Below are positions 15,980 through 39,597 of a DNA stretch of 64,000 bases, one piece after another. Made by a program: the position numbers and the translations under genes. Source of the stretch: a virus. The first letter of the stretch is position 1. Every line of letters begins with the position of its first letter. Location of the stretch: IMG/VR virus record IMGVR_UViG_3300025849_000010, positions 1 through 64,000 of that record; one strand, given 5' to 3'. The notes beneath the pieces were generated by a model that did no database searches, was not told the origin of the DNA, and was given only the letters and a program-made list of their open reading frames with translations.

Positions 15980-16684
15980 TTATACCGAATCTTGGTATAT
16001 TTGTTTGGACATTTGTACAAAGTCCGCAGGGTAATTATTACTAAAACTGTTAAAGCAAAGTTGTTGTAACATGCCTAAATCTGCTACAGTGTCTACATCA
16101 ATGCCCATAGATTCCATCTTAGGAAGAAGCTCTTTGCGTCTATCTTCGCTAATATGACTGAGTACACTACGAGGAGTTATGCCAGGCTCTCGGCGGTCAT
16201 AACAGAAGAAATAGTTAATGCTTTTGAGTTTTCCGTCTACTACAAAATAACTACTAGGGTGCATACTGTATTTGTATATGCCCAAGTCTTTATGTGCTTG
16301 AGTTATTTCTAACATTTGCTCTTTCCAGTCTGGAAGTACACTATCATAATTTTCTTCTAAGCAACCTGCTTGCTCCCAAAAGTCTACACCCTGCACCTCC
16401 AAGAATACTTTTCTATGTGTATAATCTATATCAAGTATCTTTGGAATATGTTGCGGGCAATGCTCTTGCATACGCTTTAAGAAACTAACTTCACGTCTCC
16501 ATTTTTCATCCATCTTTTTAGGATCAACTACTTCGTTTTTACCTTGGTGGTATTCACTGTCATTATGATACCATTGACAGAATACTGTGTTATCCTCATT
16601 CATAAGACTTGTATAAATTAAGTTGTTTCTACACAGACCTTTGCCGGGCACGTTGTTGTAATAGTATTCATATTTTGGTTGCAT
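15980..16684 (-). CDS. Protein-kinase-like fold protein with degenerate active site
   Basis: REVSFL helix C, IPKIL, VFLE, then KYSMHPSSY in place of HxDxxxxN and INYF in place of IDFG. Confidence 0.6.
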   Translation of the reverse strand: MQPKYEYYYNNVPGKGLCRNNLIYTSLMNEDNTVFCQWYHNDSEYHQGKNEVVDPKKMDEKWRREVSFLKRMQEHCPQHIPKILDIDYTHRKVFLEVQGVDFWEQAGCLEENYDSVLPDWKEQMLEITQAHKDLGIYKYSMHPSSYFVVDGKLKSINYFFCYDRREPGITPRSVLSHISEDRRKELLPKMESMGIDVDTVADLGMLQQLCFNSFSNNYPADFVQMSKQIYQDSV

Positions 16685-16711
16685 GCATTTACTTACCTGA
16701 TAAGTATGTAT
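16685..16711. promoter_or_regulatory. Back-to-back late-type promoters, both apparently leaderless
   Basis: Minus GTAAGTA (16696-16690) + 5 nt + ATG 16684; plus ATAAGTA (16700-16706) + 5 nt + ATG 16712. Confidence 0.65.
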
Positions 16712-17521
16712 ATGATTAGAGGAATTGGCGGAAAACCGTATATTAACTTAGACCCTTACCTAGACATAGAAGGGTTTAGAAACTTGCACCCTGAAATATG
16801 CAAAGGGTTTGCACTTGCACGTGAGTATGCAAAAGAAGGAACTTGGATGTCGCCGGGTTTTAAATTCGACGACATGAGCTATATTTTAAACTGGAAACCT
16901 ATCTATCAAGCATTTGCTGAATACCAGAACTTGCCAGAGGGCCATCCTATTCGTGTACAAGGTAGTGAAATATTCCCTACAGACTTTAAAGACTACAAGC
17001 AACGTAACTTGTTTACACGCTATCTAAAAAGTGTACTAGGTGCTAATGATCCTTACAACTATTATTTTCTTTGGGAAGAAGGTTCATGGGAACAACGTAA
17101 TGCAGAACGTAAACCTACAGAAGAACAGCAATATTTTCCAGGTGTTGTTAAATGGGTTGAAAATCTCGTAGAGGAAAATATTATTGATCGTATTGGGCGA
17201 GTTATATTCTTCCACTGTGATCATAATGGACATGCTTTTGAGCATAGAGACTTAGATGGCAAGAATGGCAACGAGCAAGGATACAGTGAGCACAACAACG
17301 AGTTTATACATATTCGATATCGCACAAAAAGAGGTTTCTACATATGGGATCCGGAATCACAAAATAAGCATTACATAAATTCAAATGCTGCATTTTGGAA
17401 TGACGAAGATTGGCACGGTGGAGAACATTCTAACGAAGTTGAATACGGATTGCGCATTGACTGTACCTTTACTCCGGAGTTTAGAAAAGTTATAGGGATA
17501 AATCACCTATCCCATTACTAA
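16712..17521 (+). CDS. 2OG-Fe(II) oxygenase-like protein
   Basis: HRD...WHGG...LRID facial triad plus Arg pattern in a beta-rich C-terminal half. Confidence 0.65.
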   Translation: MIRGIGGKPYINLDPYLDIEGFRNLHPEICKGFALAREYAKEGTWMSPGFKFDDMSYILNWKPIYQAFAEYQNLPEGHPIRVQGSEIFPTDFKDYKQRNLFTRYLKSVLGANDPYNYYFLWEEGSWEQRNAERKPTEEQQYFPGVVKWVENLVEENIIDRIGRVIFFHCDHNGHAFEHRDLDGKNGNEQGYSEHNNEFIHIRYRTKRGFYIWDPESQNKHYINSNAAFWNDEDWHGGEHSNEVEYGLRIDCTFTPEFRKVIGINHLSHY

Positions 17522-17996
17522 CTTCTATACGCACAGGCAATATACTTCTGCCTTGTATTATGTCATCAATTGCATTACATATTTGATCGTCCGTAACGCT
17601 AGGTATTATTCCAGCGCCGTAGTTTGAAATACTAACTAATGCACTATTGTCCATTTCATTATGCACGTATTCTAAGAACAATTTTTGCGAAATATACTCT
17701 GGAGTATTAAATGATTGCATTAAAGACCATTCAAATTGTGTTATTAAACTTGTAAAACTAATATTAATTTTCGCTTTACTACTTCCTAACATCACACCTT
17801 GTAAATAGCCTATATGAGCTAAGTTAATAAAAACATCACAGTCAGTAGTCATTTCATTGAGTCTGTGCATAGTATCAGTATTAGTTAGATCCCAATTGGT
17901 AGATCTTGATACTGCAACTACTTCGTGACTGTCTCTTAAATGCTCTAGTACAATTTTGCCGATAGGACTAGATGCGCCTGTTAAAACTATTTTCAT
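17490..17996 (-). CDS. Minimal short-chain dehydrogenase/reductase (Rossmann fold)
   Basis: IVLTGASSPIG, VFINLA and YISQK (YxxxK); only 168 aa. Confidence 0.7.
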   Translation of the reverse strand: MKIVLTGASSPIGKIVLEHLRDSHEVVAVSRSTNWDLTNTDTMHRLNEMTTDCDVFINLAHIGYLQGVMLGSSKAKINISFTSLITQFEWSLMQSFNTPEYISQKLFLEYVHNEMDNSALVSISNYGAGIIPSVTDDQICNAIDDIIQGRSILPVRIEVSNGIGDLSL

Positions 17997-17997
17997 C

Positions 17998-18543
17998 TTA
18001 TCCCCAAATGTTAAACAAGTACTTTGGCACTAATCCTGCATTTGCGCCAGCATGCCAGCTTGTGCGACTAGGCCATTTCCAAACAGCACCCTGTGGCTGG
18101 TTGTACAAACACTTATCGGCTACAATAATAGTATGCCCAGGTTCAGGCCCACTTACATGACAATGAAATCTTTGTAATTCCTTGCCAGCATTTAGTGTTG
18201 CTTCGTCGTCAGTGATATCCCAATGCCACGGTGCTACATCGCCCGGCAGCACACGACTTATCCAAGCATTAGTGTATTCTTTCATTCCAACAAATTGCAT
18301 AAATTGAAATATTATTTCTTCATCAAAATTCTTTCCTGGTAAAAACATATCCCAGGCTGCATTACCGCCTTCTGACTTTTGTTTGTAACCTGCGTTACGT
18401 AGAGGTCCAACTACTTCTTCAACACCTGGTACATCGTGCCCTACATCGTGTCGCGGGCCTACATACGCTGCTGTTTGGGATTCGATGCTTTTAATTAATT
18501 CTTGCCAATTTACAGTATTGCATATACCAATATACTCAGCCAT
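17998..18543 (-). CDS. 2OG-Fe(II) oxygenase
   Basis: PGDVAPWHWD...WHAGAN...K (HxD...H). Confidence 0.75.
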   Translation of the reverse strand: MAEYIGICNTVNWQELIKSIESQTAAYVGPRHDVGHDVPGVEEVVGPLRNAGYKQKSEGGNAAWDMFLPGKNFDEEIIFQFMQFVGMKEYTNAWISRVLPGDVAPWHWDITDDEATLNAGKELQRFHCHVSGPEPGHTIIVADKCLYNQPQGAVWKWPSRTSWHAGANAGLVPKYLFNIWG

Positions 18544-19090
18544 TTAAAAAATCCTCCGGCCAATAGTTTGTACTATTTTCAATTGTGTAATTGTATGTTG
18601 CTACACAATCAAGATGTCCATCTACAAACTTAAATCGCTCTTTATCATTAATAATATCACCTATCATTTCTTGAGGCACTATTGTAAATTTTGTTGTGCA
18701 TCCATACAAGTCTGATATTTTAATTTTTCCGTCTTGAATAAAAAATGTATGCGGATATATGTTTATTTTGTAGATACCTTCAGATTGTAAATCTGCTAAT
18801 ATATCACGTACTTGTTTTTTATAGTCTATATCTATATTTTTGTTTTCGTATAATACATGATTTAAATTATTGCTTTCATATTTGTAAACTATTAACATAC
18901 TACTAACGTCAACATCAATCATTTCGTAACAATAACTTTTGTGCTGTAGCTCTCGATGATATTGTAGTTCTCTATCAAACCAAAATCTATCTTTAAATTG
19001 TATATACATAGCATACTCGGAATACCTAGCTTCGTATAAATCGCTAACAGGACCTAGTACTCCGTTATGATATTTCTCAAGCAGCTTCAT
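18536..19090 (-). CDS. Protein-kinase-like fold protein with degenerate active site
   Basis: FDRELQY, GIYKINIYPHTFF, KIKISDLYG; paralogous to 15980-16684. Confidence 0.6.
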   Translation of the reverse strand: MKLLEKYHNGVLGPVSDLYEARYSEYAMYIQFKDRFWFDRELQYHRELQHKSYCYEMIDVDVSSMLIVYKYESNNLNHVLYENKNIDIDYKKQVRDILADLQSEGIYKINIYPHTFFIQDGKIKISDLYGCTTKFTIVPQEMIGDIINDKERFKFVDGHLDCVATYNYTIENSTNYWPEDFLNG

Positions 19091-19752
19091 AAAATTATCT
19101 CAATCGGTAATCCGCTAGACTGAACTAAATTTTCTAACTGTTGACTTTCATTTAACTCTATATCAAAACTAATATGCAACTCATTGTGCTTATTAAAGTT
19201 TGCAATTATTCCTGCTTTTATAGATTTATTAAACCATACACTAAATGTCTGATCAAAATTATATCGTAGTCTAGGAACCGGAGTTGCTTTAAGTGAAACA
19301 CTTAACGGATTTTCTAATTTATTAAACGGTAATAACTTACGTATCACTAATTGCTTGCGAGGATAATATCCAAAATTAACTGCACTGTGTAACCGTCCGG
19401 CATCCATTTCGTATACTATATTATCAGTTCTAGTATCATGCAGTTGTCCATTTGTAAGATCAACAAGATAACTCTCAACACCATCTAATGATAAGTGATA
19501 CCTATCATCTAAATCTGCATGTTGCTGGTATGCTCTGCCTTCTTCAAGTACATTTACACGCACTTGCCCAGGAGATTCAAGCTGATTAAAAAGTACTTCT
19601 AATTCAGTACCTTTATATTCTTCATTTAATACCCAAGGGTCATAAAAAAATCTACCTGTTGGTCGTGACAGATCATGCTTGCCTGTATCTAAATCAAGCA
19701 CAAGTTCTAGAATCTTTTTTGAGTCAGCTATTATACCTGTTTTTCTTAACAT
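19087..19752 (-). CDS. Aspartyl/asparaginyl beta-hydroxylase-like 2OG-Fe(II) oxygenase
   Basis: HADLDDRYH...LHSAVNFG...RKQLV. Confidence 0.75.
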   Translation of the reverse strand: MLRKTGIIADSKKILELVLDLDTGKHDLSRPTGRFFYDPWVLNEEYKGTELEVLFNQLESPGQVRVNVLEEGRAYQQHADLDDRYHLSLDGVESYLVDLTNGQLHDTRTDNIVYEMDAGRLHSAVNFGYYPRKQLVIRKLLPFNKLENPLSVSLKATPVPRLRYNFDQTFSVWFNKSIKAGIIANFNKHNELHISFDIELNESQQLENLVQSSGLPIEIIL

Positions 19753-19806: not shown

Positions 19807-21075
19807 ATGAAAACAAACTCTTGTACATTTTGTATGCACCCCTTTACAGGAATGGCAACTCGTGAAGATGGCGCTATTAAGGTATGTTGTCGTAGTCAGC
19901 CAGTTGGCTTTATTCAAAACGAAAGTTTGGAAGAAGCATGGAACAACGATACAATGCGTGAAGTACGTAGACAAGTACTTAATAACGAACGACCTGACGT
20001 GTGCAAACCTTGCTTTGACTTAGAAGACCAGGGTGTACAGAGCTTACGACAGCGTCATACAGCAGGGGTAATACCCGAAGCTAGGGTCAACTTGTACCCT
20101 GATGCACTAGACGCTTTAAACGACGATTATACAATGCCATTTGAGTTTCCGACTATGGAGATTAAACTAAACAACTTGTGCAATCTAAAATGTCGTATGT
20201 GCAACCCACTGGATAGTACTAGCTGGAAGGACTGGGACGTTGTTACAGAGTTTTACAAAAAAGAAGATAACTATCTTATTCCAACTATTGAAGGCCTTGT
20301 AGATAAGCCTGGGCAATATATTGGCCCATTTGATAACAGCGACAATTGGTGGGAATCATTTGAAAAACTGCTACCGTTCTTTAGACGAGTAGAGTTTGCA
20401 GGCGGCGAGCCGCTGATGGATCCGTATCATTACAAGATACTAGACAAGCTAGCACAATATGGCAATCAAATAGAATTAAAATATGCAACAAATGGAACTA
20501 CGCTAGGCATTAAAGGTGGTCGTACTATACACGACTACTGGCCTAAGTTTAAATCAATTGCTGTGAATGTAAGCATAGACGGCATACACGATGTTTATGA
20601 ATACATTAGAGGCAATGGTAAATTTAGTGAGATTGAAGAAAACATCAAAGTGTTTAAGAGTTTTCCTAATGTAACTAGAGTAGTTGGTGCATTTACTGTA
20701 CAAGCAAATAACATAATGCAAATTGACAAAGTTATTGATTACTTTATTAACAAGCTAGGTATTATATTTTATTCGCATCGTGTAAACTACCCTATGGCGC
20801 TATCTGCACAAGTACTACCTCCTAAATTAAAGCAACGAGTAGTACGCAATCTTGAAATGATGAAAGCAGACATACTAGACTATCCTCTAGTACGTGAACA
20901 CAAATTGTTAGAACAAGTTACTCTGCAACAGATACAGGACAATATTAACTTCTTAGAAGCAAAATGTATGTACGATACACATTGGAAAGACTGTGTAGAG
21001 TTTAATCGCAGACTAGATGCGACTCGCGGGCAAGACTTTCTTGCAACTAATCCGGAATTCATATCATATGTATAA
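19807..21075 (+). CDS. Radical SAM enzyme with N-terminal Twitch-like Fe-S domain
   Basis: N-terminal FCMHPF...VCC...CKPC; CNLKCRMC; AGGEP; TNG. Confidence 0.9.
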   Translation: MKTNSCTFCMHPFTGMATREDGAIKVCCRSQPVGFIQNESLEEAWNNDTMREVRRQVLNNERPDVCKPCFDLEDQGVQSLRQRHTAGVIPEARVNLYPDALDALNDDYTMPFEFPTMEIKLNNLCNLKCRMCNPLDSTSWKDWDVVTEFYKKEDNYLIPTIEGLVDKPGQYIGPFDNSDNWWESFEKLLPFFRRVEFAGGEPLMDPYHYKILDKLAQYGNQIELKYATNGTTLGIKGGRTIHDYWPKFKSIAVNVSIDGIHDVYEYIRGNGKFSEIEENIKVFKSFPNVTRVVGAFTVQANNIMQIDKVIDYFINKLGIIFYSHRVNYPMALSAQVLPPKLKQRVVRNLEMMKADILDYPLVREHKLLEQVTLQQIQDNINFLEAKCMYDTHWKDCVEFNRRLDATRGQDFLATNPEFISYV

Positions 21076-21979
21076 AGTAGAAAGTCGATGGGATCATAAA
21101 GATAGTATACACGTTGAATGGAATATCGGTAAACGATGTAATCTAGACTGTACATACTGTCCAAGCGAAATACACGATAACTTTAGTAAACACACTAATA
21201 TAAAAGTAATGCTAGATACAATCGATGCATTATACGAATTAGATCGTCCGGTACGACTTAGCTTCACAGGCGGCGAGCCATGTGTACATCCTCATATATT
21301 GGAAATTGTAGAGCATGCTGTACAAAGGCTTGATTGGGTTAATATTACAACCAACGGAACACTGCCACATAAACTGTATTCTAGACTGCCTGTAAACCAT
21401 TATGTGTTTAGCTTGCATGTAGAAGATGACGACAACTGGGAACGCTGTCTAAACAATGTGCTATACTGGGTCCAACTAAACGAGATGGAAAGAGGTATAC
21501 CATTTCAAGTTAATCTAATGGCACATCACGAACATATGGATAGAGTAAAAACTTGTGCAACGTTGTTTGACGGACATCATGTTCCTTATGTAGTAAGACG
21601 GATACGTTGGACTGAAAAACATGATTGGTTTGACGATATGAAATATAATGAAAAGGATCTACAATGGATACTTGATCAGAAGTCAACTGCAAAACCAAAC
21701 TGTGTAATAGACAACGAAGAGCTTGCACACGCTAACGATATTATTAAAGAGCAACGTAATCAATTTGAAGGATGGCGCTGTGCTGCTGGTATTCAAAGTT
21801 TAATGATTAACTGGGATGGCGATGTACATCGTGCTACTTGCAGAGTAGGTGGCAGTTTAGGTAACATTTATGACGGAAGTTTTGAAGCACCAGAAGAATG
21901 GATTACTTGTACACGCAAATGGTGTACTTGTGCTGCTGATATACCGCTAACAAAAGGACTAGTAAATGATAACGACTAG
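21068..21979 (+). CDS. Radical SAM enzyme with C-terminal SPASM/Twitch-like domain
   Basis: CNLDCTYC, TGGEP, TTNG; WRCAAG...ATC...CTRKWCTC; start at ATG 21068. Confidence 0.9.
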   Translation: MYKVESRWDHKDSIHVEWNIGKRCNLDCTYCPSEIHDNFSKHTNIKVMLDTIDALYELDRPVRLSFTGGEPCVHPHILEIVEHAVQRLDWVNITTNGTLPHKLYSRLPVNHYVFSLHVEDDDNWERCLNNVLYWVQLNEMERGIPFQVNLMAHHEHMDRVKTCATLFDGHHVPYVVRRIRWTEKHDWFDDMKYNEKDLQWILDQKSTAKPNCVIDNEELAHANDIIKEQRNQFEGWRCAAGIQSLMINWDGDVHRATCRVGGSLGNIYDGSFEAPEEWITCTRKWCTCAADIPLTKGLVNDND

Positions 21980-23027
21980 TGCTTTAAATTTAACAGGCCC
22001 AGAACGCTTAATGGTTACTTGGGACACTGGACGCAGATGTAACTTTGATTGTAGCTATTGTGAAATAAGTCGTCATGATAATAAAAGCTCTCCACACAGT
22101 TACGAAGAAATGTTGCGTACATTTGAGTTTGTAAAAGAATATACTAGCATATACACTGATCTAGTTAACATAAACTTTACAGGCGGAGAGCCCACAGTTA
22201 ATCCTGCGTTTTGGCAACTAGCAGAACATATTAAAAATACTGAAACACGTTTTAGACTTAGCTTAACTACAAACGGTGCCTGGCATCCTCGCAACACTGA
22301 TCGCATAGCAGAGATATTTGAAGGCGTTACTGTAAGTTATCATACAGAAGGTCATGCTAAACTAAAACAACAAACACTAGACAACATCAAACTGTTGCAT
22401 GCCAAAGGGTTGTGGCTGCAAGTAAATGTAATGCTGCACACAAACAACTGGTCCGAAGGTGTAGCAGTATGCGAAGAACTAAAAGTATTAGGAATTAAAC
22501 ACAATCCTCGACCTATCGGAGATGGCAATGTAGAACGCAAGGGTTGGTTCACTGACACAGATGGAAGTCAGCGCAGGACAACACACGACTATACCGACGA
22601 ACAACAAGATTGGTTTTATAGTTACACTAATGTTGCAAAGCCTAGTGAAGGAACAAAGGCAGGAACAGAATTAGGACGTAAATGTTGTGGTGGACGTTGT
22701 TTGCAGGGCAAAGTAAACGGCAAGTGGCAAGAAGTTGAACTAGTCGATACACATTTTAAAGGATGGTTTTGCAGCGTCAACAAGTACTTCTTACACATCG
22801 ATCAACACACGGGCAATGTGTATCACCATCAAACGTGTAAAGCACTACACGACGGCGATAGAGGCCCTGTAGGCACCCTTAAAGACATAGATGCTATACT
22901 TGCTTATGCTAGATTCAACAAAGACAGGACTATTATTTGTCCTAATGAACGTTGTGGTTGCGGAATGTGTGTGCCCAAGGCACGAGAACTAGCCGACTAT
23001 ACAGCTATACTCGCTAAAAACATCTAA
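21966..23027 (+). CDS. Radical SAM enzyme with C-terminal SPASM-like domain
   Basis: CNFDCSYC, TGGEP; CCGGRC, WFCSV, CPNERCGCGMC. Confidence 0.9.
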   Translation: MITTSALNLTGPERLMVTWDTGRRCNFDCSYCEISRHDNKSSPHSYEEMLRTFEFVKEYTSIYTDLVNINFTGGEPTVNPAFWQLAEHIKNTETRFRLSLTTNGAWHPRNTDRIAEIFEGVTVSYHTEGHAKLKQQTLDNIKLLHAKGLWLQVNVMLHTNNWSEGVAVCEELKVLGIKHNPRPIGDGNVERKGWFTDTDGSQRRTTHDYTDEQQDWFYSYTNVAKPSEGTKAGTELGRKCCGGRCLQGKVNGKWQEVELVDTHFKGWFCSVNKYFLHIDQHTGNVYHHQTCKALHDGDRGPVGTLKDIDAILAYARFNKDRTIICPNERCGCGMCVPKARELADYTAILAKNI

Positions 23028-24233
23028 AAATTTCTTACTACGGCGTATGTCGTATTCTTTGATAAATGATTTGAAGTCATCTAATTGTGTTTCATTAGGC
23101 TCTTTATTAAATTCAGAAATTACAAAATCAAAACGTTGAACTGTTTCGTTATTAAAATGTTTTTTAAGTTTTGTACGAGATTGCAATAGGATATAATGCC
23201 AAGACTTAGGTGCCAGGGATACATGCATAAAGCTAGGATGTCTAACATAACTTATACTCAATTTTACACGCTTATATTTTTTCTTAAGATCAACAATATC
23301 ATCAACAAAACTATCAAAGCTAGTAATACTCAATACATTGTACGCACACATTAAACTTAACTTTAATTTAGGAAGTTCAGTTAATACATAATTACAGTTT
23401 TCAATCCACTGTGCGTAGTTTAAACCGTCACGAACATACTCAGCTTTTGCTCCATAGCTTTCTCCACTAGTTGCTATTTCGATACGCTTTACACAATGTT
23501 GAACCTTTTCTAACTGTGAAATAAAATCTGCAATAACATGCTTCGGTGCACCTAGATTACTATTGATTACTAGGGTAAGTTTTTTATTAGGATTTTCTAT
23601 AATGTAATTGAGCAACTTTTTTGTATGCCGACTAAGCATAGGTTCGCCACCTGTAATACGTAAGGTGTGCAATCCATAATACATTATCGGCAGGTATTTC
23701 CAAAATGCATCAATATATGGATTAGATTCTCTATCTAGTATTTGTTTTTCGTATATGTCGTTATAGTTCTGTGATGTAGGATATGCACCGTTGTTTTCTA
23801 TTTCACTTGCCCATAAACTGCTAAACTGCGGGCCGCAGTATGCACATTTAAAGTTGCAAACATTTGAAAAACTAACTTCCAACATAGTAGGATCATATCT
23901 GTTACTAGAAATAATATCATTGTAGTACGGAAGACTGTCGAGCTTTTTACTCATTAGTACTCTGTCACTATACTTTTCTGTTTCTTCTATGCTCCAACAG
24001 TAATCGCACTCTGATGGCTTTTCGTTATTAAGCATTTGATCTCTAACACTACGTTTGTATGAACTATTATGTAATGCACTAGGATCTGCTTTAACTTCTT
24101 CAACAGGAACAGTATGCGGATTAGGATGATGACAACTGTGATTCTTTCCTATGCCTAAATGCATTGTGCTGTTGGTCCACTTTGCTAAACATAGACTTTC
24201 GCCTAGTTTATTTTTTACATACCAATTAAACAT
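22989..24233 (-). CDS. Radical SAM enzyme with N-terminal Twitch-like domain
   Basis: CLAKW...HSCHHP...CDYCW; CNFKCAYC; TGGEP. Confidence 0.9.
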   Translation of the reverse strand: MFNWYVKNKLGESLCLAKWTNSTMHLGIGKNHSCHHPNPHTVPVEEVKADPSALHNSSYKRSVRDQMLNNEKPSECDYCWSIEETEKYSDRVLMSKKLDSLPYYNDIISSNRYDPTMLEVSFSNVCNFKCAYCGPQFSSLWASEIENNGAYPTSQNYNDIYEKQILDRESNPYIDAFWKYLPIMYYGLHTLRITGGEPMLSRHTKKLLNYIIENPNKKLTLVINSNLGAPKHVIADFISQLEKVQHCVKRIEIATSGESYGAKAEYVRDGLNYAQWIENCNYVLTELPKLKLSLMCAYNVLSITSFDSFVDDIVDLKKKYKRVKLSISYVRHPSFMHVSLAPKSWHYILLQSRTKLKKHFNNETVQRFDFVISEFNKEPNETQLDDFKSFIKEYDIRRSKKFLDVFSEYSCIVG

Positions 24234-32276: not shown

Positions 32277-32303
32277 CGATTGCAAACAGGAGTACTGAAT
32301 TTC

Positions 32304-33536
32304 ATGAAATATTTTAAAGAATGGCTATCGAATGATAGATATATTCGAGAATGTGTTAGCGAAATCGGTTGCTTCCATCATTACAAAAAACATCTTGCTA
32401 GACCTGAAAGGAAACAGTACGATAGTCAATATGTAATATTTGCGCATTACTCATACAAAAGCGGAATATACAGCGACAGTGATTTGTTTAAAGATATCAA
32501 GCCAGAGTTTTTAAATAAACTTCGTGCAAGAGAATGTGTTTTTGTATTAGACGGAACTCACGAAGGATGGGCACCTGAGCATCACAACGTTGCGGTTGCA
32601 TTATATAATAGTGCAATAAAACACAATATTGATCCAGCTGGTGTAACATTCCTAAGTGGCAATTTAAGAGAAAAAAGTAACTTTAGAATTTTCTATAATG
32701 GCACTAACCAAACTAGTAACCCAATTAATGTTATTGAAATAATGCACTGGGACACAAATGTTAAACAGTGGGGAAGTAACGAGTCGGTTAGAAATAACAG
32801 ATATACAGAACTTGATAAAAAGTATGACGGTACATTTTTCTTAAATTTAAATAGGCGTAATAGATTCTGGAGAAGTTATTGTGTGTACAAACTTCAAGAA
32901 TCAGGACTGAGTAAATATGGAGCAATCAGTCACGACGAATTATCTCCCAATGAATATAGAGGCAACAAATACTTTAGTAGCGCAATGCAGAAAACGCTAG
33001 TAACTAATACGCCAATGATAGTCGACACTACTGACTTTCAAACTAACTGGGCAAACAATTTAGGCAGTGACTTGCAGAACAAAGTATTATTCAATTTGAC
33101 AAACGAAACTATGCAGAGCGATTGGTGTGAAACTAGTTTGTTTTATAGCGAAAAGACTTTCAAACCAATATTGCATAAAGTACCTGTAATCATTTGGGGA
33201 CAGACTGGGCAAAATTACAATCTACAAAGACTTGGATACAAACTATATACGGACTGGTTTAACTATGACTTTGATTTCGAAACTGACATTGTAAAACGAT
33301 GGGACAAACTGCAAGCAGAATTAATACGAGTATGCAACCACTTAGAGAAGATGTCTCGCAGTCAGCAGATCGAATGGTCTATGCAGAACAAGGAAGTGCT
33401 TGACTACAATGCTAACAGAATGCAGTACAACGAATATACTATAAATGAATTTTTAAGATTTACTGAAAATTGTAATAGATTTATTACTAGACAAAGTCCG
33501 GTAGACGACTCATACCAATCAAAAAATGTTTTCTAG
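32304..33536 (+). CDS. Hypothetical protein, possible GT-B-type glycosyltransferase
   Basis: FLNLNRR, NET...FYSEKTFKPI, LGYKLY; CAGGAG SD before ATG 32304; the function call is tentative. Confidence 0.55.
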   Translation: MKYFKEWLSNDRYIRECVSEIGCFHHYKKHLARPERKQYDSQYVIFAHYSYKSGIYSDSDLFKDIKPEFLNKLRARECVFVLDGTHEGWAPEHHNVAVALYNSAIKHNIDPAGVTFLSGNLREKSNFRIFYNGTNQTSNPINVIEIMHWDTNVKQWGSNESVRNNRYTELDKKYDGTFFLNLNRRNRFWRSYCVYKLQESGLSKYGAISHDELSPNEYRGNKYFSSAMQKTLVTNTPMIVDTTDFQTNWANNLGSDLQNKVLFNLTNETMQSDWCETSLFYSEKTFKPILHKVPVIIWGQTGQNYNLQRLGYKLYTDWFNYDFDFETDIVKRWDKLQAELIRVCNHLEKMSRSQQIEWSMQNKEVLDYNANRMQYNEYTINEFLRFTENCNRFITRQSPVDDSYQSKNVF

Positions 33537-34907
33537 TTCAGGAAACGTTTCTGCAAAATTTGTTCCCCGGCGGCGATCGTGTTCTTTAAACCAAGCAACA
33601 AAATCCTTGCGGCCTATTTCTAATTTGTCTTGACTGTACTCAGTAGTGCGCATGTAGTCTACAACACGACGAAACTTTTCATATTCAAGTTTAGAAAACT
33701 TATTAACATCATATTCATCTAGATTACTTTGGATAAAAGCTAAATGACTTTCCATATAACTCATAAAGTGCTTAGGCAAAATATTCATATCATACTGGAT
33801 CGGTTCTTTTAAATACGGAGTGTCAAAGCGGATACGAGTTGTATCATTTTGATAATGCGCTCTCCATTCTAAAAACTTTTCAAGTAATGATTGAAATGTC
33901 GTTACACTTAGTATGTTAAATGTAACCATAAATGTAATAGGCTGATCAGTTTTTGTCATCCAAGTGTCAAAATTCTTTTCCCATACATTTAGATCTAAGT
34001 TAGTTCTAATGTACTCTGCAGGTTTACCCCAGGTATCTAAACTAGTAAACAATTTAAACTTTTTAATTTTCTTTTCTTCTATTAGCTTGTTTACTCTTTC
34101 AGCAAGTCTTACTACTAAAATATTTTTTACTGCTAGGTTAGAATTTATGTTTATTTCAAGATGCGGCTTCGGATCTCTATCTAGTTCATCTAGCAATCTC
34201 CACATACTCTGCTGCAACAATGGTTCCCCGCCTGTGATGCGTAAAATGTTTAATGTTTTACTAACTTCGGGCCACCATTCCCACCATGCTGCTACATAAG
34301 GGTTTTCTTCTTCCTTTTTGTAAATGTTTAATTTGTTTATATGCTGGGTATGATTTTTAACCATATTATATGGGCCAAATTGTTCTATTTCTTTATAGTA
34401 ACTACTACTAGCCTTAGGATGACAATATCCGCATTTTAGATTACACTCGTTACCAAACGACACTTCGATGTATTCAGGATTAATATTAAAGTCCCAGTCG
34501 TTATTAATAATTTCAGCAAGTCGATGTTTATTGTAAATACCCGAATTTCGTTCATGCCTGTCACTGACATAATCTTTGCCCATACATTCAATGTTCCAGC
34601 AGTACTGACATCCACTAGGTTTTTCACCTTGCAACATTAGCTTACGCTGTTCTTTCTTTTCTTGGGTGTTATGTAACGCACTAGGATTTTCTTTTATTTC
34701 GTGTAACGGAATCTTATGTGGAGCAGGGTGATAACAACTGTGTGTTTCTCCTGTTTGTAAATAGATAGTTGTGTGGTGCCACTTTGCTAAACAAAATGTT
34801 GGAGACACTTTATCTGTAATTTGTTTTACTTCTGCCATTCGATCAATTGGATCTTTTACAATCTTCAGTCGCCGAGCAAGTTTTTTAACTAGCTTATTCA
34901 ATGTCAA
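33519..34907 (-). CDS. Radical SAM enzyme with N-terminal Twitch-like domain
   Basis: FCLAKW...HSCYHP...CQYCW; CNLKCGYC; TGGEP; paralog of 22989-24233; start uncertain. Confidence 0.9.
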   Translation of the reverse strand: MTLNKLVKKLARRLKIVKDPIDRMAEVKQITDKVSPTFCLAKWHHTTIYLQTGETHSCYHPAPHKIPLHEIKENPSALHNTQEKKEQRKLMLQGEKPSGCQYCWNIECMGKDYVSDRHERNSGIYNKHRLAEIINNDWDFNINPEYIEVSFGNECNLKCGYCHPKASSSYYKEIEQFGPYNMVKNHTQHINKLNIYKKEEENPYVAAWWEWWPEVSKTLNILRITGGEPLLQQSMWRLLDELDRDPKPHLEININSNLAVKNILVVRLAERVNKLIEEKKIKKFKLFTSLDTWGKPAEYIRTNLDLNVWEKNFDTWMTKTDQPITFMVTFNILSVTTFQSLLEKFLEWRAHYQNDTTRIRFDTPYLKEPIQYDMNILPKHFMSYMESHLAFIQSNLDEYDVNKFSKLEYEKFRRVVDYMRTTEYSQDKLEIGRKDFVAWFKEHDRRRGTNFAETFPELENIF

Positions 34908-35793
34908 TAAATCCTTGTCCTGTTCGATCAGTGTTGCTATAGCTTTGTTTAAACATTTCGCTTTGTGTCGAATTTAAAAAGTTATCTACAGGAATGTTTA
35001 ATTCACGCTGTAGTATAATACCTTGTTCATTAATAGCATCTTCAATGTTATCTTCGTTAATATTATCCCACATTGTGTTAAGATATTTAAAGTCTCTAAC
35101 ATTAACATAATCCCAATCTGATAAGTTTGTCATTATGCAGCCTTGGCGAGCTCCGTACATTGCCCATAGCCCATTGTCTACATCAGCACCTACCATTTGC
35201 CAAATCATTAATCTGTGTAGATTTTGCCAGTACACTTCCTGCGTAAATGTAGAAGGATTAAACTTCTTTCCTTGATCTAGACACATTTTAACACCTTCAC
35301 GAAAGCCTGCTCTCCAGGCTTGGTGTGCAGTTGCATTATTGTATACTTTAGAATAACAACTATTCATTTGTATATAATCTAAGTTCCAGCAAAACTCTAC
35401 TTGTGCAGCAATATTATCCGACTCGCTTGCTTCGTGTGTTTTCATGTTTAATACAACTTCTTTTGGCCAACATTTAAGGCCGCCATTACCGTATAACAAT
35501 CCATTAACAACATTATAGCCGCACCAACTAAGCACAGCGTTCTCCATATAAGGATGTTGTTTAAAGTCTATTTCTTGTTCTAGGAAATCGGCATATATTT
35601 TATTGTCGCCGTCTACTGTAATGAATCGTTCTGTTTCACTTAATTCAGCGCAAGCCTTATGTGCTGCGTCAGATCCTTCTACGCCATGTACACGTTTTGC
35701 CCAAGGTGCTTTAGTTAAAAGATCAGCATAGTTTTCTTCTGCATTAGGTTCGTCATATGACAAGTATATAATATCAATATCTTTAATCTTCAT
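34894..35793 (-). CDS. GT-A-fold glycosyltransferase-like protein
   Basis: IIYLSYDEP, RVHGVEG, TVDGD (DxD), AWRAGFREGVK. Confidence 0.65.
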   Translation of the reverse strand: MKIKDIDIIYLSYDEPNAEENYADLLTKAPWAKRVHGVEGSDAAHKACAELSETERFITVDGDNKIYADFLEQEIDFKQHPYMENAVLSWCGYNVVNGLLYGNGGLKCWPKEVVLNMKTHEASESDNIAAQVEFCWNLDYIQMNSCYSKVYNNATAHQAWRAGFREGVKMCLDQGKKFNPSTFTQEVYWQNLHRLMIWQMVGADVDNGLWAMYGARQGCIMTNLSDWDYVNVRDFKYLNTMWDNINEDNIEDAINEQGIILQRELNIPVDNFLNSTQSEMFKQSYSNTDRTGQGFIDIE

Positions 35794-37120
35794 TTTTAAA
35801 ACGTTCCCTTAACCAGTCAAAGTCGTTAATTTTCTTAAGAGCAGTAGGATCATTGACGTTTGCTTCGCCATACTCTTGTCCTTGTTTTGCTCCTCTTTGT
35901 GCGTATTCTCCATAGCGTCTGTTTGCGCCCTCATACTGCCACTGTGTTAATCTATATTCTGTTTCATCGTTATGCTGCCTGTCGATTGAACGAGCAGATA
36001 ATTTTACACATTCTCTAAATGCGCTCTTCCACGTATTAAACGGATCAGTATTAAATGCAGTAATATTAGACACAATAGGCATTGGCTTAAAATACGGACT
36101 AATACTAGTTGTCATATCAGCAGTATCAGTATCCATATTTAAAGTAAGTTTTCTCGGTAGTAATTTAATTCCGCCATATCCGTAAACTAGGTCATTAATA
36201 GGATTCTTACTACGCCAAACATGTACAAATTTTAATTCGTTATCAGGCACAGTGTAAGTAAATTTAAATTCTTCATCAATACGTGCATCGCCGTCAACTA
36301 CCCAAAACATCGGACTAGTACACAGTTCTGCGGCCTTTATGTGTGCTTGATGTATACCCTTTACTCCGTGTACTCTTTGAGCTCTTGGAAAACGAGCTTT
36401 CAATGATTGCCAATTTTCTTCTGCATTAGGTTCGTCATAACTTATGAATACAATGTCATAACGACTTGCAATATTTTCTTTAATGCTTTTACTAATACGA
36501 TGCGGGCTCTTATATACAGTTTTGTAAAATTTACTTTGTGATTCTGTGTATGGTTCATCAGAAATAGGCAACGAATCATACTCACTAGCTGCAAGGTATT
36601 TCTTAAGTGCAGCTCTTGCTCCTTTGATTGCCCATTCGCCGTGTTTAACATCATTCCCAATATTCGACCATATTAATAACTTTTTTCGATCAATACTAGA
36701 AAATGGAACATCTTTAACAAGTTTTTCAATTTCTATAAATGCTGAATTATAGGCCTGTTCAGCAGTAGTAGCATGATAAACTACTGTTCCGTATTGTGGT
36801 ATATCAAATGCATAATCTTCTCCGCCTTTCCAGTAAACCCCCGAAGATGAATACGACAAACTGTTTACTATACTAATATTGCTCCAGTGTATTGTTGAAC
36901 GCTTAACACTTTCTTCAAATATCAACGGAGTTGACATAAACGACTTAGTTAATTTTGCATCATCTGTTATTGCAAAAAAGTTCGTGTCAGGCAAGGTATC
37001 TGTTCGTACTATCCAAGGTATAGCATTTTTTGCTGCATAAAAGTTTTCTTCAGCATTAGGTGCGCCTTGATCAAAAAAGTAAAAGTCGTAGTCTGCAAGT
37101 TTTAGTTGAAAATCACTCAT
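35783..37120 (-). CDS. GT-A-fold glycosyltransferase-like protein, two tandem domains (first degenerate)
   Basis: C-terminal IVFISYDEP...VVDGD...WKSAFRECVK; N-terminal remnant APNAEEN...AYNSAFIE. Confidence 0.65.
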   Translation of the reverse strand: MSDFQLKLADYDFYFFDQGAPNAEENFYAAKNAIPWIVRTDTLPDTNFFAITDDAKLTKSFMSTPLIFEESVKRSTIHWSNISIVNSLSYSSSGVYWKGGEDYAFDIPQYGTVVYHATTAEQAYNSAFIEIEKLVKDVPFSSIDRKKLLIWSNIGNDVKHGEWAIKGARAALKKYLAASEYDSLPISDEPYTESQSKFYKTVYKSPHRISKSIKENIASRYDIVFISYDEPNAEENWQSLKARFPRAQRVHGVKGIHQAHIKAAELCTSPMFWVVDGDARIDEEFKFTYTVPDNELKFVHVWRSKNPINDLVYGYGGIKLLPRKLTLNMDTDTADMTTSISPYFKPMPIVSNITAFNTDPFNTWKSAFRECVKLSARSIDRQHNDETEYRLTQWQYEGANRRYGEYAQRGAKQGQEYGEANVNDPTALKKINDFDWLRERFKNED

Positions 37121-37634
37121 ATGCTATCCCTACGTTTTCTACGTGTGCAGGCACAAATATATCTATATCTTTAGTAAAGCACTCGTCTACGTGTATATTA
37201 ATATCATCGTCAAATAAAATTGTTTTATATAAAATATGAAAACAATTCTTTGCGCAAATGTAAAACACATTTGAATTCAAAAACTCTCCTTCAAATCGTA
37301 ACGTTTTATTTGTTGAGTTTATGTATATCATATTCTTACATGATGCTGTAGGAATTTTGTAAAAAGAATGTTCTGTTGTAATAGATATATCTGTGTTAAT
37401 TTTTTCAATTACAAAATTATCACCTAACTGCACTACAGTATAATTGTGTTTAAGTATGTCACCATTAAGAAATTTTTCCGCTAGACTCTCACTGATATTA
37501 ATAGAGTTGTCTGGAGCATCTCCCGAATGAGAAAAGACAGCCGTTATTCTATTTTCACTATCGTATGACACATAGTATTTTAATGTACGAGCTAACATCT
37601 GATGACGACGAATGTCGTCTAATATACTACTCAT
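37113..37634 (-). CDS. Hypothetical protein
   Basis: 173 aa; coupled to both neighbours. Confidence 0.65.
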   Translation of the reverse strand: MSSILDDIRRHQMLARTLKYYVSYDSENRITAVFSHSGDAPDNSINISESLAEKFLNGDILKHNYTVVQLGDNFVIEKINTDISITTEHSFYKIPTASCKNMIYINSTNKTLRFEGEFLNSNVFYICAKNCFHILYKTILFDDDINIHVDECFTKDIDIFVPAHVENVGIAYE

Positions 37635-38403
37635 TGAACAACTCCTTTACGTCTGTTGGTAAGAAATCGTCTTCAACATAATGTAATATATCATTCAACA
37701 TATACGAATCTAACATAATTTTTCCGTGAAACGTGTAAACTGGAATTCTATTAGTTACAGTATCTGACGGTGTATTCCAATCTTGCATTTTGGGTTTTAA
37801 ATGTATAAAGGTAGGCACTGTTGTATTATCAGTAGTAGCACTCTCTAGTCCTAATATTTTTATAGCAAGTGCCATGTTTAAATCAATACTTTGTCCAGAC
37901 TGGTATGTGTTCTTTAAAAACTTACTATAATAAGATTTCCAATTAAGCGTAATATCTTTCAATAGCTCAAACACTAATTTAGAAGTAGGTGTCTTTTTAA
38001 AATAATAAAATGCTGTGTATAAATTAGGCAAACTATTCTTTACAAAAGTTTTTCTATAATAGTCGCTTGTTGCAATAGTATTTCTATAGGTTAAAACATT
38101 AGTTGTAAAAAACATATCATGATGTGAAAACTTATCCCACCAATGGTCTACGTTTCGACAAAATACCATATCAGCATCAAGTACAATTGTTTCTTCATAA
38201 GGAGACATCTCATATGCTCGCCAGCGATTCTCTATTTTCCATTCACTGTCTTTTGCGTAATCGTCTTTAATGTCTTTATCAGTAATAATAGTTACGTTGT
38301 TTATGCTATTAAATTTTTTAATACTTGCTGCTAACAATTCTGCTTGTTTTACATAATCAGTCTTACCGTTGTTTTGTGCGAAAATGACATAGCCTTTACT
38401 CAT
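37627..38403 (-). CDS. GT-A glycosyltransferase (GT8-like)
   Basis: SPYEETIVLDADM (DxD), late FIHLK His motif. Confidence 0.7.
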   Translation of the reverse strand: MSKGYVIFAQNNGKTDYVKQAELLAASIKKFNSINNVTIITDKDIKDDYAKDSEWKIENRWRAYEMSPYEETIVLDADMVFCRNVDHWWDKFSHHDMFFTTNVLTYRNTIATSDYYRKTFVKNSLPNLYTAFYYFKKTPTSKLVFELLKDITLNWKSYYSKFLKNTYQSGQSIDLNMALAIKILGLESATTDNTTVPTFIHLKPKMQDWNTPSDTVTNRIPVYTFHGKIMLDSYMLNDILHYVEDDFLPTDVKELFNE

Positions 38404-39256
38404 TTACAAACTCCTTGTCGATTAGATCATTTAAGTGAAGTTTATTCATAATGTGTATATTCATACCTTCAACCGAGACTATGTTAACTTTGTCTATTCT
38501 TGATTTTTGTCCTAAAACAAACGTATACTTTCCATCTTTAATAGTTAGCAAGTCATCTTGAGGACTAGTATATAACATTTTGCCAGGTAACTGACACGGC
38601 CAATTAGTTTCTTGGTATCCGTTGAGCATATGCAATGCTATACTAAAGGCGTAATCATTTCTATAAAGTTTTAGAGGTATACGATACAATGTCCTAAAAT
38701 AATGATAATGTTCTTTAATATAATTTACTAGTTCAAATAGTTTTTTAGTTCGTTCAGTTTTCTTAAAAACTAATACAGTTGCCCACCAAAAATCAATAGC
38801 TTCATCGGATATTTTGTCAAAGCCTTTTATATTTCTTTTATATGCAATATCGCAACTATCTCTAAACATAAACAAATCTGATGGCTGATCTAATACTTTT
38901 AGGAAACTGCTATTATTGATTAAGTAATCTGTATCTATTACAATAGTAGTGTCAAATGGAGTTATGTCATAAGCACTTGCCCGATTTACATTTTTCCATT
39001 CTGCACGTATACTGTGATGTTCACCGCCGAAAAATTCTCTATTTTGAAAGTTAGATTCCCGTGGCATTTGAAAAATTACATCATCTACGTATTTTTTATA
39101 CCATGGATATGTTTTTTCAAGATAACTTACACTGTCAGTCACAATAACTACAGGCAATTTTAAATGCTGTTTTACTAGCTTTGCGTTATATATTGCTTGT
39201 TTAACATAGTCTATTGCAGTGTTGTTATATGCAAACAAGAGTACTCCTGTTGTCAT
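38396..39256 (-). CDS. GT-A glycosyltransferase (GT8-like), paralog of the neighbour
   Basis: TPFDTTIVIDTDY (DxD), RNDYAFSIA, IHIMNK. Confidence 0.7.
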   Translation of the reverse strand: MTTGVLLFAYNNTAIDYVKQAIYNAKLVKQHLKLPVVIVTDSVSYLEKTYPWYKKYVDDVIFQMPRESNFQNREFFGGEHHSIRAEWKNVNRASAYDITPFDTTIVIDTDYLINNSSFLKVLDQPSDLFMFRDSCDIAYKRNIKGFDKISDEAIDFWWATVLVFKKTERTKKLFELVNYIKEHYHYFRTLYRIPLKLYRNDYAFSIALHMLNGYQETNWPCQLPGKMLYTSPQDDLLTIKDGKYTFVLGQKSRIDKVNIVSVEGMNIHIMNKLHLNDLIDKEFVNE

Positions 39257-39597
39257 AGAGATAGCAAATCCTCTAACTTTCGAGATTTCAAAATTGCATC
39301 TTCATACTGCAAAAAATATGTCTCCGTTGCAGACTTGTATGTGTCAGTAACTAATTTTAAAAATTCTATAATATTAGTAATTTTTATAGGAATGTCGTTG
39401 TCATCTGTAATAACACTAATTTCATTTTCAAATGCTGTTTGTAAAAATGCAATTAGTTCTTTATTAGCAGTAAACTTTCCACCATTGAAGAATACAATGA
39501 TTGCTTCTTGAAACTGTTCTTTCAGTAGCCGCTTTTGATTGTTAATAGTGTCAATATGATGTATATCTTCTAATACTGTCTTTAATCGTTGATCCAT
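39253..39597 (-). CDS. Hypothetical phage protein
   Basis: 114 aa; GGAG SD; first gene behind a promoter. Confidence 0.75.
   Translation of the reverse strand: MDQRLKTVLEDIHHIDTINNQKRLLKEQFQEAIIVFFNGGKFTANKELIAFLQTAFENEISVITDDNDIPIKITNIIEFLKLVTDTYKSATETYFLQYEDAILKSRKLEDLLSL

Follow-up and report, generated by a model that had tools for sequence, protein, structure and literature searches.

The first 64 kb of the 159.6-kb linear IMG/VR record IMGVR_UViG_3300025849_000010 (hereafter the window) contain, at positions 15980-39597, an island of 26 genes, denoted g01 to g26, ten of which encode proteins with the CxxxCxxC motif of radical S-adenosylmethionine (SAM) enzymes. On balance, this island is probably a fibre-linked module of a T4-like myovirus in which a glycan is built and tailored by radical chemistry, with all of its enzyme activities being those that we infer from the genes.

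That the system deals with sugars, as proposed in an earlier interpretation made from the letters of the window (the sequence-only reading), is borne out by five glycosyltransferase (GT)-like proteins, a nucleoside-diphosphate (NDP)-sugar dehydrogenase, fusions of GT-A domains to radical SAM enzymes, and a similar mix of genes in Bdellovibrionales and in the phages RsoM2USA and Mosig. That it is one biosynthetic system is equally upheld by a gene order that is kept in a 94-kb relative, by a core that is found in up to 80 loci, and by the purifying selection on the genes tested.

The island fills 23.6 kb with 26 open reading frames (ORFs), with gaps of at most 60 bp and many overlaps of 4-8 bp, and the earlier inventory of some 25 contiguous genes, mostly of the tailoring type, was essentially right. 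Membrane segments were predicted in none of the 26 island proteins.

The radical SAM enzymes

The ten proteins with CxxxCxxC comprise two paralogous families, called here class A (n = 4) and class B (n = 5), and the singleton g15. "N-Twitch" denotes the predicted N-terminal Twitch-like domain of class A.

g07, 19807-21075, plus strand: 422 aa, N-Twitch radical SAM protein of NF033640; core gene, 81-90% identical across relatives
g08, 21017-21979, plus strand: 320 aa, class B with C-terminal four-cysteine cluster motif; core gene; PF04055 at 47 bits
g09, 21966-23027, plus strand: 353 aa, class B; variable cassette
g10, 22989-24233, minus strand: 414 aa, N-Twitch, g10/g20 subclade; variable cassette
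g11, 24226-25302, minus strand: 358 aa, class B; variable cassette
g12, 25262-26239, minus strand: 325 aa, class B radical SAM protein
g13, 26236-27624, minus strand: 462 aa, N-Twitch; the most conserved gene of the island, dN/dS (ratio of nonsynonymous to synonymous divergence) 0.011-0.07
g15, 28312-29379, minus strand: 355 aa, singleton radical SAM protein with CQASCAMC and five further invariant cysteines
g17, 29964-30974, minus strand: 336 aa, class B; core gene, a 44-49% identical homolog of which ends the Bdellovibrionales array
g20, 33519-34907, minus strand: 462 aa, N-Twitch, g10/g20 subclade (fused to GT-A elsewhere); variable cassette, 35% identical to RsoM2USA_349

The cut-off of PF04055 (29.5 bits) was passed by eight of these ten; g10 (25.7) and g20 (23.3) fell below it, yet both pass that of NF033640, and all ten proteins have extra conserved cysteines. 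In class A (g07, g10, g13 and g20; 414-462 aa), around 120-150 residues precede the radical SAM motif and include four invariant cysteines, which in the numbering of g13 are C21, C40, C96 and C99, followed by C155, C159 and C162 of the motif itself. All four proteins are full-length members of NF033640, over positions 1-398 of the model (g13 399.8, g07 325.1, g20 324.2 and g10 293.2 bits, for a cut-off of 170), and Pfam SPASM matches occur at residues 9-69 and 21-99 of the class A N-terminal domains. Class B (g08, g09, g11, g12 and g17; 320-358 aa) has the motif right at the start, and its invariant C-terminal cysteines are C269, C291, C325 and C330 only.

Given that four C-terminal cysteines suffice for one auxiliary cluster, class B appears to be Twitch-like and not SPASM, and both classes are predicted to hold a single auxiliary cluster of this kind instead of the seven-cysteine SPASM arrangement. 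The seven-cysteine, two-cluster SPASM domain was absent from classes A and B, and the named maturase and other enzyme models all scored far below their cut-offs. The description of the set as "SPASM/Twitch" therefore holds for the Twitch type, with ten CxxxCxxC proteins that have auxiliary cysteines, while SPASM-type peptide chemistry, such as that of AlbA or PqqE, is not indicated. A QueE-like identity for g15 was tried and ruled out by search.

The class A family is large, with 5,423 cluster representatives of the NF033640 type at E<=1e-30 in an exhaustive profile search, and no paper on the chemistry of NF033640 was found in the literature. N-Twitch proteins are often chains of two or three full modules (P0241-P0255), an example being P0241, with 1203 aa and three modules. 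In a quick maximum-likelihood tree with long branches, which was used only for the coarse split of g10/g20 from g07/g13, g10, g20, RsoM2USA_349 and some bacterial genes formed one clade (SH-aLRT 100), g07 and g13 grouped with the Bdellovibrionales arrays, and the viral and bacterial rows were interleaved.

Fusions and recurring contexts that link the module to sugars

One link between the two chemistries comes from fusion proteins that were found among the top matches of the exhaustive class A search. In P0265, a g22-type GT-A domain (54% identical) is fused to a g10/g20-type radical SAM enzyme (41%), and in P0317 a GT-A domain recognised by Pfam (Glyco_transf_7C, E 2.6e-10) is also fused to a g10/g20-type radical SAM enzyme, on a contig that additionally encodes a separate GT-A and a UDP-Glc/GDP-Man dehydrogenase.

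Similar combinations recur in other genomes. A 1.9-Mb Bdellovibrionales chromosome has an array of seven class A genes and a g17-like gene, which adjoins an AsnB-type amidotransferase, an ulvan-lyase-like gene, a GT2, a UDP-sugar dehydrogenase and a PMT_2 gene. The presence there of a sugar 6-dehydrogenase together with a carboxylate-activating enzyme of the PP-loop type may be likened to the pair g18 and g14 of the phage.

In the Ralstonia jumbo phage RsoM2USA, ORF347-355 correspond, in the order of the window, to a gene with a fibre N-terminal motif, g26, g25, g24, an unmatched ORF, g21, a class A radical SAM gene (35-37% identical to g20/g10), the C-domain of g22, and g16, and this mini-module adjoins structural proteins that were confirmed by mass spectrometry. 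In the Pelagibacter phage Mosig, a g16 homolog lies among three radical SAM genes annotated as MoaA, at a locus that abuts VrlC and also encodes an ArnB-like sugar aminotransferase, a carbamoyltransferase, an epimerase and an Asp_Arg_Hydrox protein. Separately, the isolated Vibrio phages K566 and K567 (255 kb) have four distant N-Twitch-like radical SAM genes in a run, at 22-25% identity (in K566, L116, 161548-168284).

Glycosyltransferases and sugar-nucleotide enzymes

Five GT-like proteins are encoded, in line with the four or five counted before: g19 (from a weak model), g21, g22, g24 and g25. They are accompanied by three candidate enzymes of sugar-nucleotide metabolism.

g03, 17490-17996, minus strand: 168 aa, short protein similar to Rossmann-fold short-chain dehydrogenases/reductases (SDR)
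g14, 27617-28315, minus strand: 232 aa, QueC-like PP-loop ATPase; overlaps g15 by 4 bp
g18, 30982-32226, minus strand: 414 aa, divergent NDP-sugar 6-dehydrogenase of the UDP-Glc/GDP-Man dehydrogenase family, GGAC250HPRD
g19, 32280-33536, plus strand: 418 aa, GT-B-fold-like candidate GT; likely start ATG at 32304, behind AGGAG
g21, 34894-35793, minus strand: 299 aa, GT-A (GT2-like) with the motifs SYDEPNAEEN, VDGD and YGNGG
g22, 35783-37120, minus strand: 445 aa, degenerate N-terminal and catalytic C-terminal copy of a g21-type GT-A; core gene
g24, 37627-38403, minus strand: 258 aa, GT8/Mannosyl_trans3-like retaining GT-A, LDADM; PF11051 at 22.1 bits (cut-off 22); 31% identical to RsoM2USA_352
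g25, 38396-39256, minus strand: 286 aa, paralog of g24, IDTDY; 34% identical to RsoM2USA_353

The DxD motif VDGD is conserved in g21 and g22. The AlphaFold2 (AF2) model of g21 has a predicted local distance difference test (pLDDT) score of 79, its Foldseek matches were A64R of PBCV-1 (the best), TarP, RmlT and SunS (E 4e-4 to 7e-4), the viral fold matches include the Che8 GT, and the atlas clusters to which it led are named GT2-like (score 0.99). For g19, the AF2 model (pLDDT 56) gave as its best matches the T4 beta-glucosyltransferase (BGT; Z 9.8), the T4 alpha-glucosyltransferase (AGT; 9.4), PimB' (9.1) and WaaG (8.2); in this poor model, the top seven matches are all GT-B, with Z 8.4-9.8 over 255-294 aligned residues, and an atlas lead to GT10 scored only 0.80. 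Given this, g19 is only tentatively regarded as GT-B-like.

The g22-type gene varies between 224 and 1057 aa among the relatives, with a varying number of N-terminal repeats of ~100 aa that lack the DxD (L024:4224-7397, L027:1590-4136, L007:5159-7369 and L078:3820-5754). For the large g22-like proteins, which reach 1057 aa, an arrangement as chains of several active GTs was considered and rejected, as only the last domain keeps VDGD and YGxGG. A near-cut-off match to T4_gp9_10_C in one large g22-like protein was judged spurious, and the N-terminal part is not fibre-like in its composition.

The assignment of g18 as the UDP-sugar dehydrogenase of the sequence-only reading was confirmed at the level of an NDP-sugar dehydrogenase, by PF03721 (64.3 bits), PF00984 (61.5 bits) and the catalytic cysteine motif GGAC250HPRD. 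In g14, the QueC-like ATPase, there is a PP-loop (SGGADS at residue 16) and a cysteine cluster (invariant C193, C214, C217 and C220, as C-x20-CxxCxxC), both of which support the earlier assignment; the match to PF06508 remains below its cut-off, and some g14 homologs at 53-56% identity carry PF06508. The SDR proposed before is likewise supported in part, since g03 resembles RmlD_sub_bind (E 6e-4), Epimerase (E 1e-3) and the SDR PRK07578 (E 6e-7), over its N-terminal 60 residues only and within a piece of 168 aa.

A full NDP-sugar 4,6-dehydratase/epimerase of 306 aa is encoded in a relative, two genes beyond g14 and beside its g06 homolog. In a relative of the left flank (L104:19066-19644), the extra edge genes encode an alternative oxidase (PTOX-like, PF01786), 2-oxoglutarate (2OG) oxygenases and a full-length NDP-sugar 4,6-dehydratase/epimerase. 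The L104 type is widespread, with its g13 ortholog being indexed in 194 collection blocks.

Conservation, selection and mosaicism

The search with g13 returned 2876 homologs; in IMG/VR its relatives are encoded by 233 stretches, the top 80 of which show identities of 85-100%. Across those 80 loci, the core, which recurs on at least 233 viral contigs from the ocean, consists of g07, g08, g13, g16, g17, a g12-like gene, g15-like genes, a g14-like gene, g06, g04/g05-like genes and a g22-like gene. Its order is fixed in the 14 long loci that were mapped, as g22-g15-g17-g16-g13-g12, g08-g07-g14 and g06-g04/05, while the radical SAM cassettes g09, g10, g11 and g20 are present or absent among the relatives. 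The 94-kb relative is collinear with positions 657-66304 in window numbering and keeps all 26 island genes, and in all three related contigs compared, 19-26 kb separate g13 from the conserved baseplate gene, a spacing also found in the source phage. The synteny check that had been suggested therefore found the genes linked in relatives, in the 14 long loci and the 94-kb relative alike, and not scattered.

The corresponding check on selection had a similar outcome. For each gene with an ortholog in three comparison loci, a set in which g01 and g24-g26 have none, dN/dS was 0.00-0.25 at low and at high divergence, so that all of the genes tested are under purifying selection.

Compared with locus L002, which is otherwise 98-100% identical in protein sequence, g16 is only 81% identical (proportion of synonymous differences, pS, 0.45, against 0.01-0.09 in its neighbours) and g07 is 95% identical (pS 0.19). 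These divergences point to short recombination tracts that swap single alleles, and, as g16 and g07 appear to have exchanged alleles, the region may be regarded as mosaic but constrained. Finally, g14 and g15 appear to be coupled, because they overlap by 4 bp in the window and form a single ORF of 624 aa in L055 (8104-9978, plus strand). The predicted g15/g14 complex scored 0.01, which counts neither way.

Oxygenase-like, kinase-fold, methyltransferase-like and orphan genes

The remaining genes of the island encode further candidate tailoring enzymes and two small orphan proteins.

g01, 15980-16684, minus strand: 234 aa, small protein of predicted protein-kinase fold, paralog of g05
g02, 16679-17521, plus strand: 280 aa, with invariant H189-x-D191 and a later histidine (candidate metal triad)
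g04, 17998-18543, minus strand: 181 aa, cupin-like candidate oxygenase; invariant H107, D109 and H164
g05, 18536-19090, minus strand: 184 aa, small protein of predicted protein-kinase fold
g06, 19087-19752, minus strand: 221 aa, AspH/Cpz10-type Fe(II)/2OG beta-hydroxylase; core gene
g16, 29372-29974, minus strand: 200 aa, class-I methyltransferase-like Rossmann protein with the motifs IYGGWNG and SVDID; core gene
g23, 37113-37634, minus strand: 173 aa, no family match
g26, 39253-39597, minus strand: 114 aa, first in line behind the fibre genes; RsoM2USA_354 is a homolog in the equivalent position

Three HxD..H oxygenases had been proposed, of which g06 was confirmed: its family profile matched PDB 7v4f (Cpz10) at E 1.8e-13, with H78, D80, H122 and R132 invariant. 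The other two, g02 and g04, keep HxD..H yet match no family and no PDB sequence; relatives have two to four paralogous copies of g04. The kinase fold of two proteins was supported by the g01/g05 family profile, which matches the kinases TTK, Snf1 and Bud32 with a best E of 1.2e-7; g01 may be inactive, given the Asn at the position of the DFG-like Asp of g05.

The gene g16 adjoins g13 or stands one gene off (separated by g15 and/or g14), and it has homologs in RsoM2USA and in Mosig, where it is annotated "putative methyltransferase". Its identification as the methyltransferase of the earlier reading extends as far as its motifs, with no Pfam or PDB sequence match. Over the whole set, PHROG, Pfam and NCBIfam returned nothing for g01, g02, g04, g05, g16, g19, g21-g23, g25 and g26, and PDB sequence and profile searches returned nothing for g02, g04, g14, g16 and g21.

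Boundaries of the island and the surrounding genome

Directly downstream of the fibre genes, and sharing their strand, come the genes g20-g26. The features that delimit the island are as follows.

15905-15945, plus strand: left boundary, intrinsic-terminator-like, a 13-bp hairpin followed by a U-run (-15.1 kcal/mol, z -2.67), 3' of the rightward gene block
32253-32260, plus strand: TATAAATA, T4-type late -10 consensus, lying ahead of g19 in a gap of 53 bp
39620-39648, minus strand: right boundary, sigma-70-like TTGACA-17-TAATAT with 10/12 matches, within the 60 bp that separate g26 from the last fibre gene
39658-64000, minus strand: adjoining virion genes, fibre-like proteins of 511, 332, 497, 1971 and 697 aa, a baseplate protein of 203 aa and a giant protein, with PHROG tail-fibre/structural matches and baseplate homologs

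The terminator placed near 15909 by the sequence-only reading was recovered as the hairpin and U-run at 15905-15945, which the consensus terminator scan had missed owing to its 13-nt loop. The promoter placed at 39648 is present as TTGACA-17-TAATAT, but such sigma-70-like sites are no commoner in the region than in shuffled sequence. The "late-type promoters" proved to be weakly based, as TATAAATA is under-represented in the window (two matches, against 8.8 expected), with only one in an island gap. The adjacent virion genes are genuine fibre genes, but their Ser/Thr-rich character is modest, with 15-20% Ser+Thr in the fibre proteins against 14% genome-wide.

The giant structural gene at 52391-64000 (minus strand) extends to 66304 in the full record and encodes 4637 aa, with 70% identity in the 94-kb relative. 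The 203-aa baseplate protein next to it is 99% identical in that relative, the remaining region being 45-90% identical.

The record is a genome fragment (CheckV 44%) of an uncultured marine myovirus, and a major capsid gene of the T4 Gp23 type (E 7.6e-84), together with contigs of relatives that reach 198 kb, points to a T4-like phage. An early reading as a Rak2/Atu_ph07-like jumbo phage, which came from one baseplate gene and the CheckV value, was dropped for these same two reasons. No match to the island was found by Megablast among 50,697 phage records, and no tRNA genes were found in the 64-kb window.

To the left of the island there are replication and repair genes together with a set at 657-3749 (plus strand), namely a phosphoribosyltransferase (657-1220), a HIT protein (1210-1584), the GTP cyclohydrolase I FolE (1846-2565) and a QueE-like radical SAM protein (2645-3652). 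This left-flank set is of the deazapurine type and could make a 7-deazapurine nucleotide, or could have partner genes in the absent part of the genome. No canonical QueC, QueD, TGT/DpdA, thymidylate-synthase-like hydroxymethylase or A-type Fe-S carrier was found in the 160-kb record, which is incomplete, so that absence from it is no proof.

A second island in the same record, at 112630-122655 and thus outside the window, encodes nine more CxxxCxxC proteins in two convergent runs, which are not members of NF033640. The record as a whole therefore has at least 19 CxxxCxxC proteins (ten in the island and nine in the second island) and one QueE-like radical SAM protein that was found by profile only.

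Proposed mechanism and alternative explanations

In the mechanism proposed here, g18, g03 and g14 would make or alter nucleotide sugars, with the ATP-pyrophosphatase g14 activating a carboxylate, for example that of a uronic acid, for amidation. The glycan would be assembled by the five GT-like proteins (GT-A g21/g22, GT8-like g24/g25 and GT-B-like g19), and its sugar units would be edited at unactivated C-H positions by the ten Twitch-type radical SAM enzymes, through reactions that might include epimerisation, deoxygenation, oxidation, and C-C or C-methyl bond formation. This editing may be helped by hydroxylation by the three Fe/2OG-type proteins, by methylation by the methyltransferase-like protein, and perhaps by phosphorylation by the kinase-fold pair, and the g10/g20-type N-Twitch enzymes would partner GT-A domains of the g21/g22 type.

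The acceptor would most likely be the virion's own fibres, as far as a tentative choice among acceptors can be made. This choice is favoured because the module has a conserved place behind the fibre genes, on a shared strand, in both a marine T4-like and a soil jumbo phage, and because its enzymes are all soluble and no lipid-carrier machinery accompanies them. A wider generalisation, which is more doubtful, is that N-Twitch radical SAM enzymes form a large glycan-editing class that partners GT-A enzymes and in some cases is fused to them, and that rapidly changing phage arrays write radical-derived changes without precedent into a fibre glycan coat, thus diversifying or shielding host recognition, with a chemistry shared with predatory bacteria of the Bdellovibrio type.

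Several observations weigh against a glycan module that acts on the fibres. No solved structure in the PDB is nearer to class A than MoaA (E 2.5e-7), and neither the members of NF033640 nor the class B paralogs have a known activity, product or acceptor. Among the sugar enzymes, g18 scores 147.5 bits with TIGR03026, below the cut-off of 189.8, and no C-terminal UDP-binding domain was detected in it, which is why it is treated as a divergent member of its family; g14 reaches 16.2 bits with PF06508 (cut-off 22), over its C-terminal 73 residues only; the fold matches of g21 are modest (template-modelling score, TM, 0.3-0.44; E ~4e-4), and the GT-B matches of g19 come from the pLDDT 56 model. In P0279, the piece ahead of the N-Twitch module is a subtilase (S8) and not a GT, and two of the three bacterial contexts of N-Twitch genes were uninformative. 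Adjacency to fibre genes is circumstantial and by itself no proof of a fibre acceptor, and the published reading of such islands is a change of the host O-chain (PMC7029224).

This last reading, in which the altered sugar is put on the lipopolysaccharide (LPS), capsule or surface-layer (S-layer) glycan of the host and blocks superinfection or the re-adsorption of progeny to lysing cells, is unlikely here. It is the explanation published for the GT-rich host-recognition clusters of pelagimyophages (PMC7029224), g24 and g25 resemble GT8 and mannosyltransferase families that often act on LPS, and the array of homologs in the bacterial chromosome belongs to a locus of the polysaccharide type. The island, however, encodes no flippase, polymerase, initiating phosphoglycosyl transferase or other membrane protein; no sign of lysogeny was seen on the fragment, where no systematic search was made; and a module that stands behind the fibre genes both in a T4-like marine phage and in a Ralstonia jumbo phage from soil would be unexpected for a host-specific surface polymer.

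A target that is not a glycan is a less probable explanation, in which the enzymes would modify side chains of virion proteins or a peptide, in the manner of ribosomally synthesised and post-translationally modified peptides (RiPPs), or would make a nucleoside- or aminoglycoside-like metabolite, with the GTs being accessory. The second island, with its nine further CxxxCxxC proteins, and the N-Twitch protein fused to a subtilase piece fit such a target, and aminoglycoside pathways include Twitch enzymes, namely BtrN and AprD4. The nearest solved relative of g06 also acts in nucleoside-antibiotic synthesis (PMC9814697). Two independent fusions to GT-A domains speak against it, as does the absence of a transporter or resistance gene from the island. 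No RRE or PqqD-like domain was noticed, although none was searched for, and the N-terminal extension of class A is Twitch-like while class B has no extension; nor does the island have a gap of more than 60 bp for a precursor gene, no dedicated search for small ORFs having been made.

Hypermodification of DNA is slightly more improbable still. According to this explanation, the kinase-fold, oxygenase, radical SAM and GT enzymes would build a bulky, possibly glycosylated base against restriction, and it draws on the top structural matches of g19 to the T4 DNA beta- and alpha-glucosyltransferases (Z 9.8 and 9.4), on the FolE, QueE-like radical SAM, phosphoribosyltransferase and HIT genes of the left flank, and on the QueC-like g14. 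Lee and colleagues are said to have described, in PNAS in 2018, radical SAM enzymes and kinases in thymidine hypermodification clusters. The matches of g19 are, however, within one Z unit of ordinary GT-B enzymes, in a poor model, while g14 is below the QueC cut-off and g15 is not QueE-like. The lack of TGT/DpdA, QueC, QueD and the thymidylate-synthase-like hydroxymethylase counts weakly, given the incomplete record; the module travels with fibre genes and not with replication genes, and the bacterial array lies among polysaccharide genes.

A chance pile-up of unrelated accessory genes ("morons") without a common function, in a hypervariable region, is close to refuted. The extra radical SAM cassettes do come and go among the relatives, and local allele replacement is seen in g16 and g07 when they are compared with a contig of otherwise 98-100% identity. 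The core order is nonetheless kept in the 14 mapped long loci, with its genes in up to 80 loci; the distant phage RsoM2USA has a collinear mini-module; components are fused to one another; the tight overlaps suggest translational coupling; and the purifying selection is uniform.

Significance of a proposed fibre-linked radical tailoring module

Radical SAM enzymes catalyse reactions that rank among the most difficult in biology, and here a single phage fragment encodes at least 19 CxxxCxxC proteins and a QueE-like one, with NF033640, a family of thousands of diverse members without a known reaction, at the centre of the island. The GT fusions, together with the recurring UDP-sugar dehydrogenases and carboxylate-activating enzymes, lead to a testable hypothesis, namely the radical editing of sugars. 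RsoM2USA (ORF347-355) is a culturable carrier of the minimal module, and K566/K567 provide another culturable entry point. If the product is found on the fibres, it would bear on host recognition by abundant marine phages and on escape from the defences of hosts or grazers, and, if the proposal is true, radical chemistry would be added to the repertoire of virus-encoded glycosylation.

Comparison with known systems

One of the closest published counterparts is the host recognition cluster (HRC) of pelagimyophages and cyanomyophages described by Zaragoza-Solas et al. 2020 (PMC7029224). Like the source island, the HRC is a variable island of T4-like phages among tail-fibre genes and beside a giant gene, with GTs, a UDP-sugar dehydrogenase and "cassettes related to radical SAM proteins", and the isolated pelagiphage Mosig has a comparable island next to VrlC. 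The source island agrees with the HRC in its Gp23, its adjoining fibre and giant genes, its GT content and its variation among relatives. The HRC paper (PMC7029224) lists genes and proposes a change of the host O-chain, whereas the source island is one of ten radical SAM genes; the two Twitch-type families, the core order, the GT::radical SAM fusions and the RsoM2USA and Bdellovibrionales homologs are absent from that paper.

Another counterpart is TARA_ERS488813_N000010, a T4-like environmental viral genome with 12 radical SAM genes that was noted together with Fe-S assembly genes (Nishimura et al. 2017, PMC5332604). Like the source phage, it is marine and T4-like, and its dozen radical SAM genes are counted in that paper as users of Fe-S clusters, without a locus structure or function being given; in contrast to the Fe-S assembly genes noted there, an A-type carrier gene was not found in the 160-kb source record.

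At the level of the protein family, g07, g10, g13 and g20 share with NF033640 (N_Twi_rSAM) the N-terminal four-cysteine domain and CxxxCxxC over the full length of the model, which is itself a curated sequence model without a known reaction.

Virus-encoded glycosylation of virions is known from the GTs of the mycobacteriophage Che8 type, from A64R of the chlorovirus PBCV-1 and from the fibril glycans of mimivirus (as cited in PMC12619734). None of these systems is known to use radical SAM enzymes. They resemble the source system in having soluble virus-encoded GTs beside structural genes, A64R being the best PDB match of g21. They differ from it in that the fold matches of g21 are weak and the source system is known from genes alone.

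The enzymes BtrN, AprD4 and MoaA have one auxiliary [4Fe-4S] cluster in a short cysteine-rich domain, and their substrates are carbohydrates or nucleotides, not peptides. Their Twitch domain is C-terminal, in contrast to the N-terminal position predicted in class A, and the sequence resemblance does not extend beyond the radical SAM core (E 1e-7 or worse).

Given these comparisons, the fibre-linked glycan islands of marine T4-like phages were already known, and radical SAM cassettes in them had been noted in passing. What is new here are the GT-A::radical SAM fusions, the g15::g14 fusion, the selection figures for each gene, the assignment of class B as Twitch-like and not SPASM, the size of the class A family, and its tandem arrays and multi-module chains.

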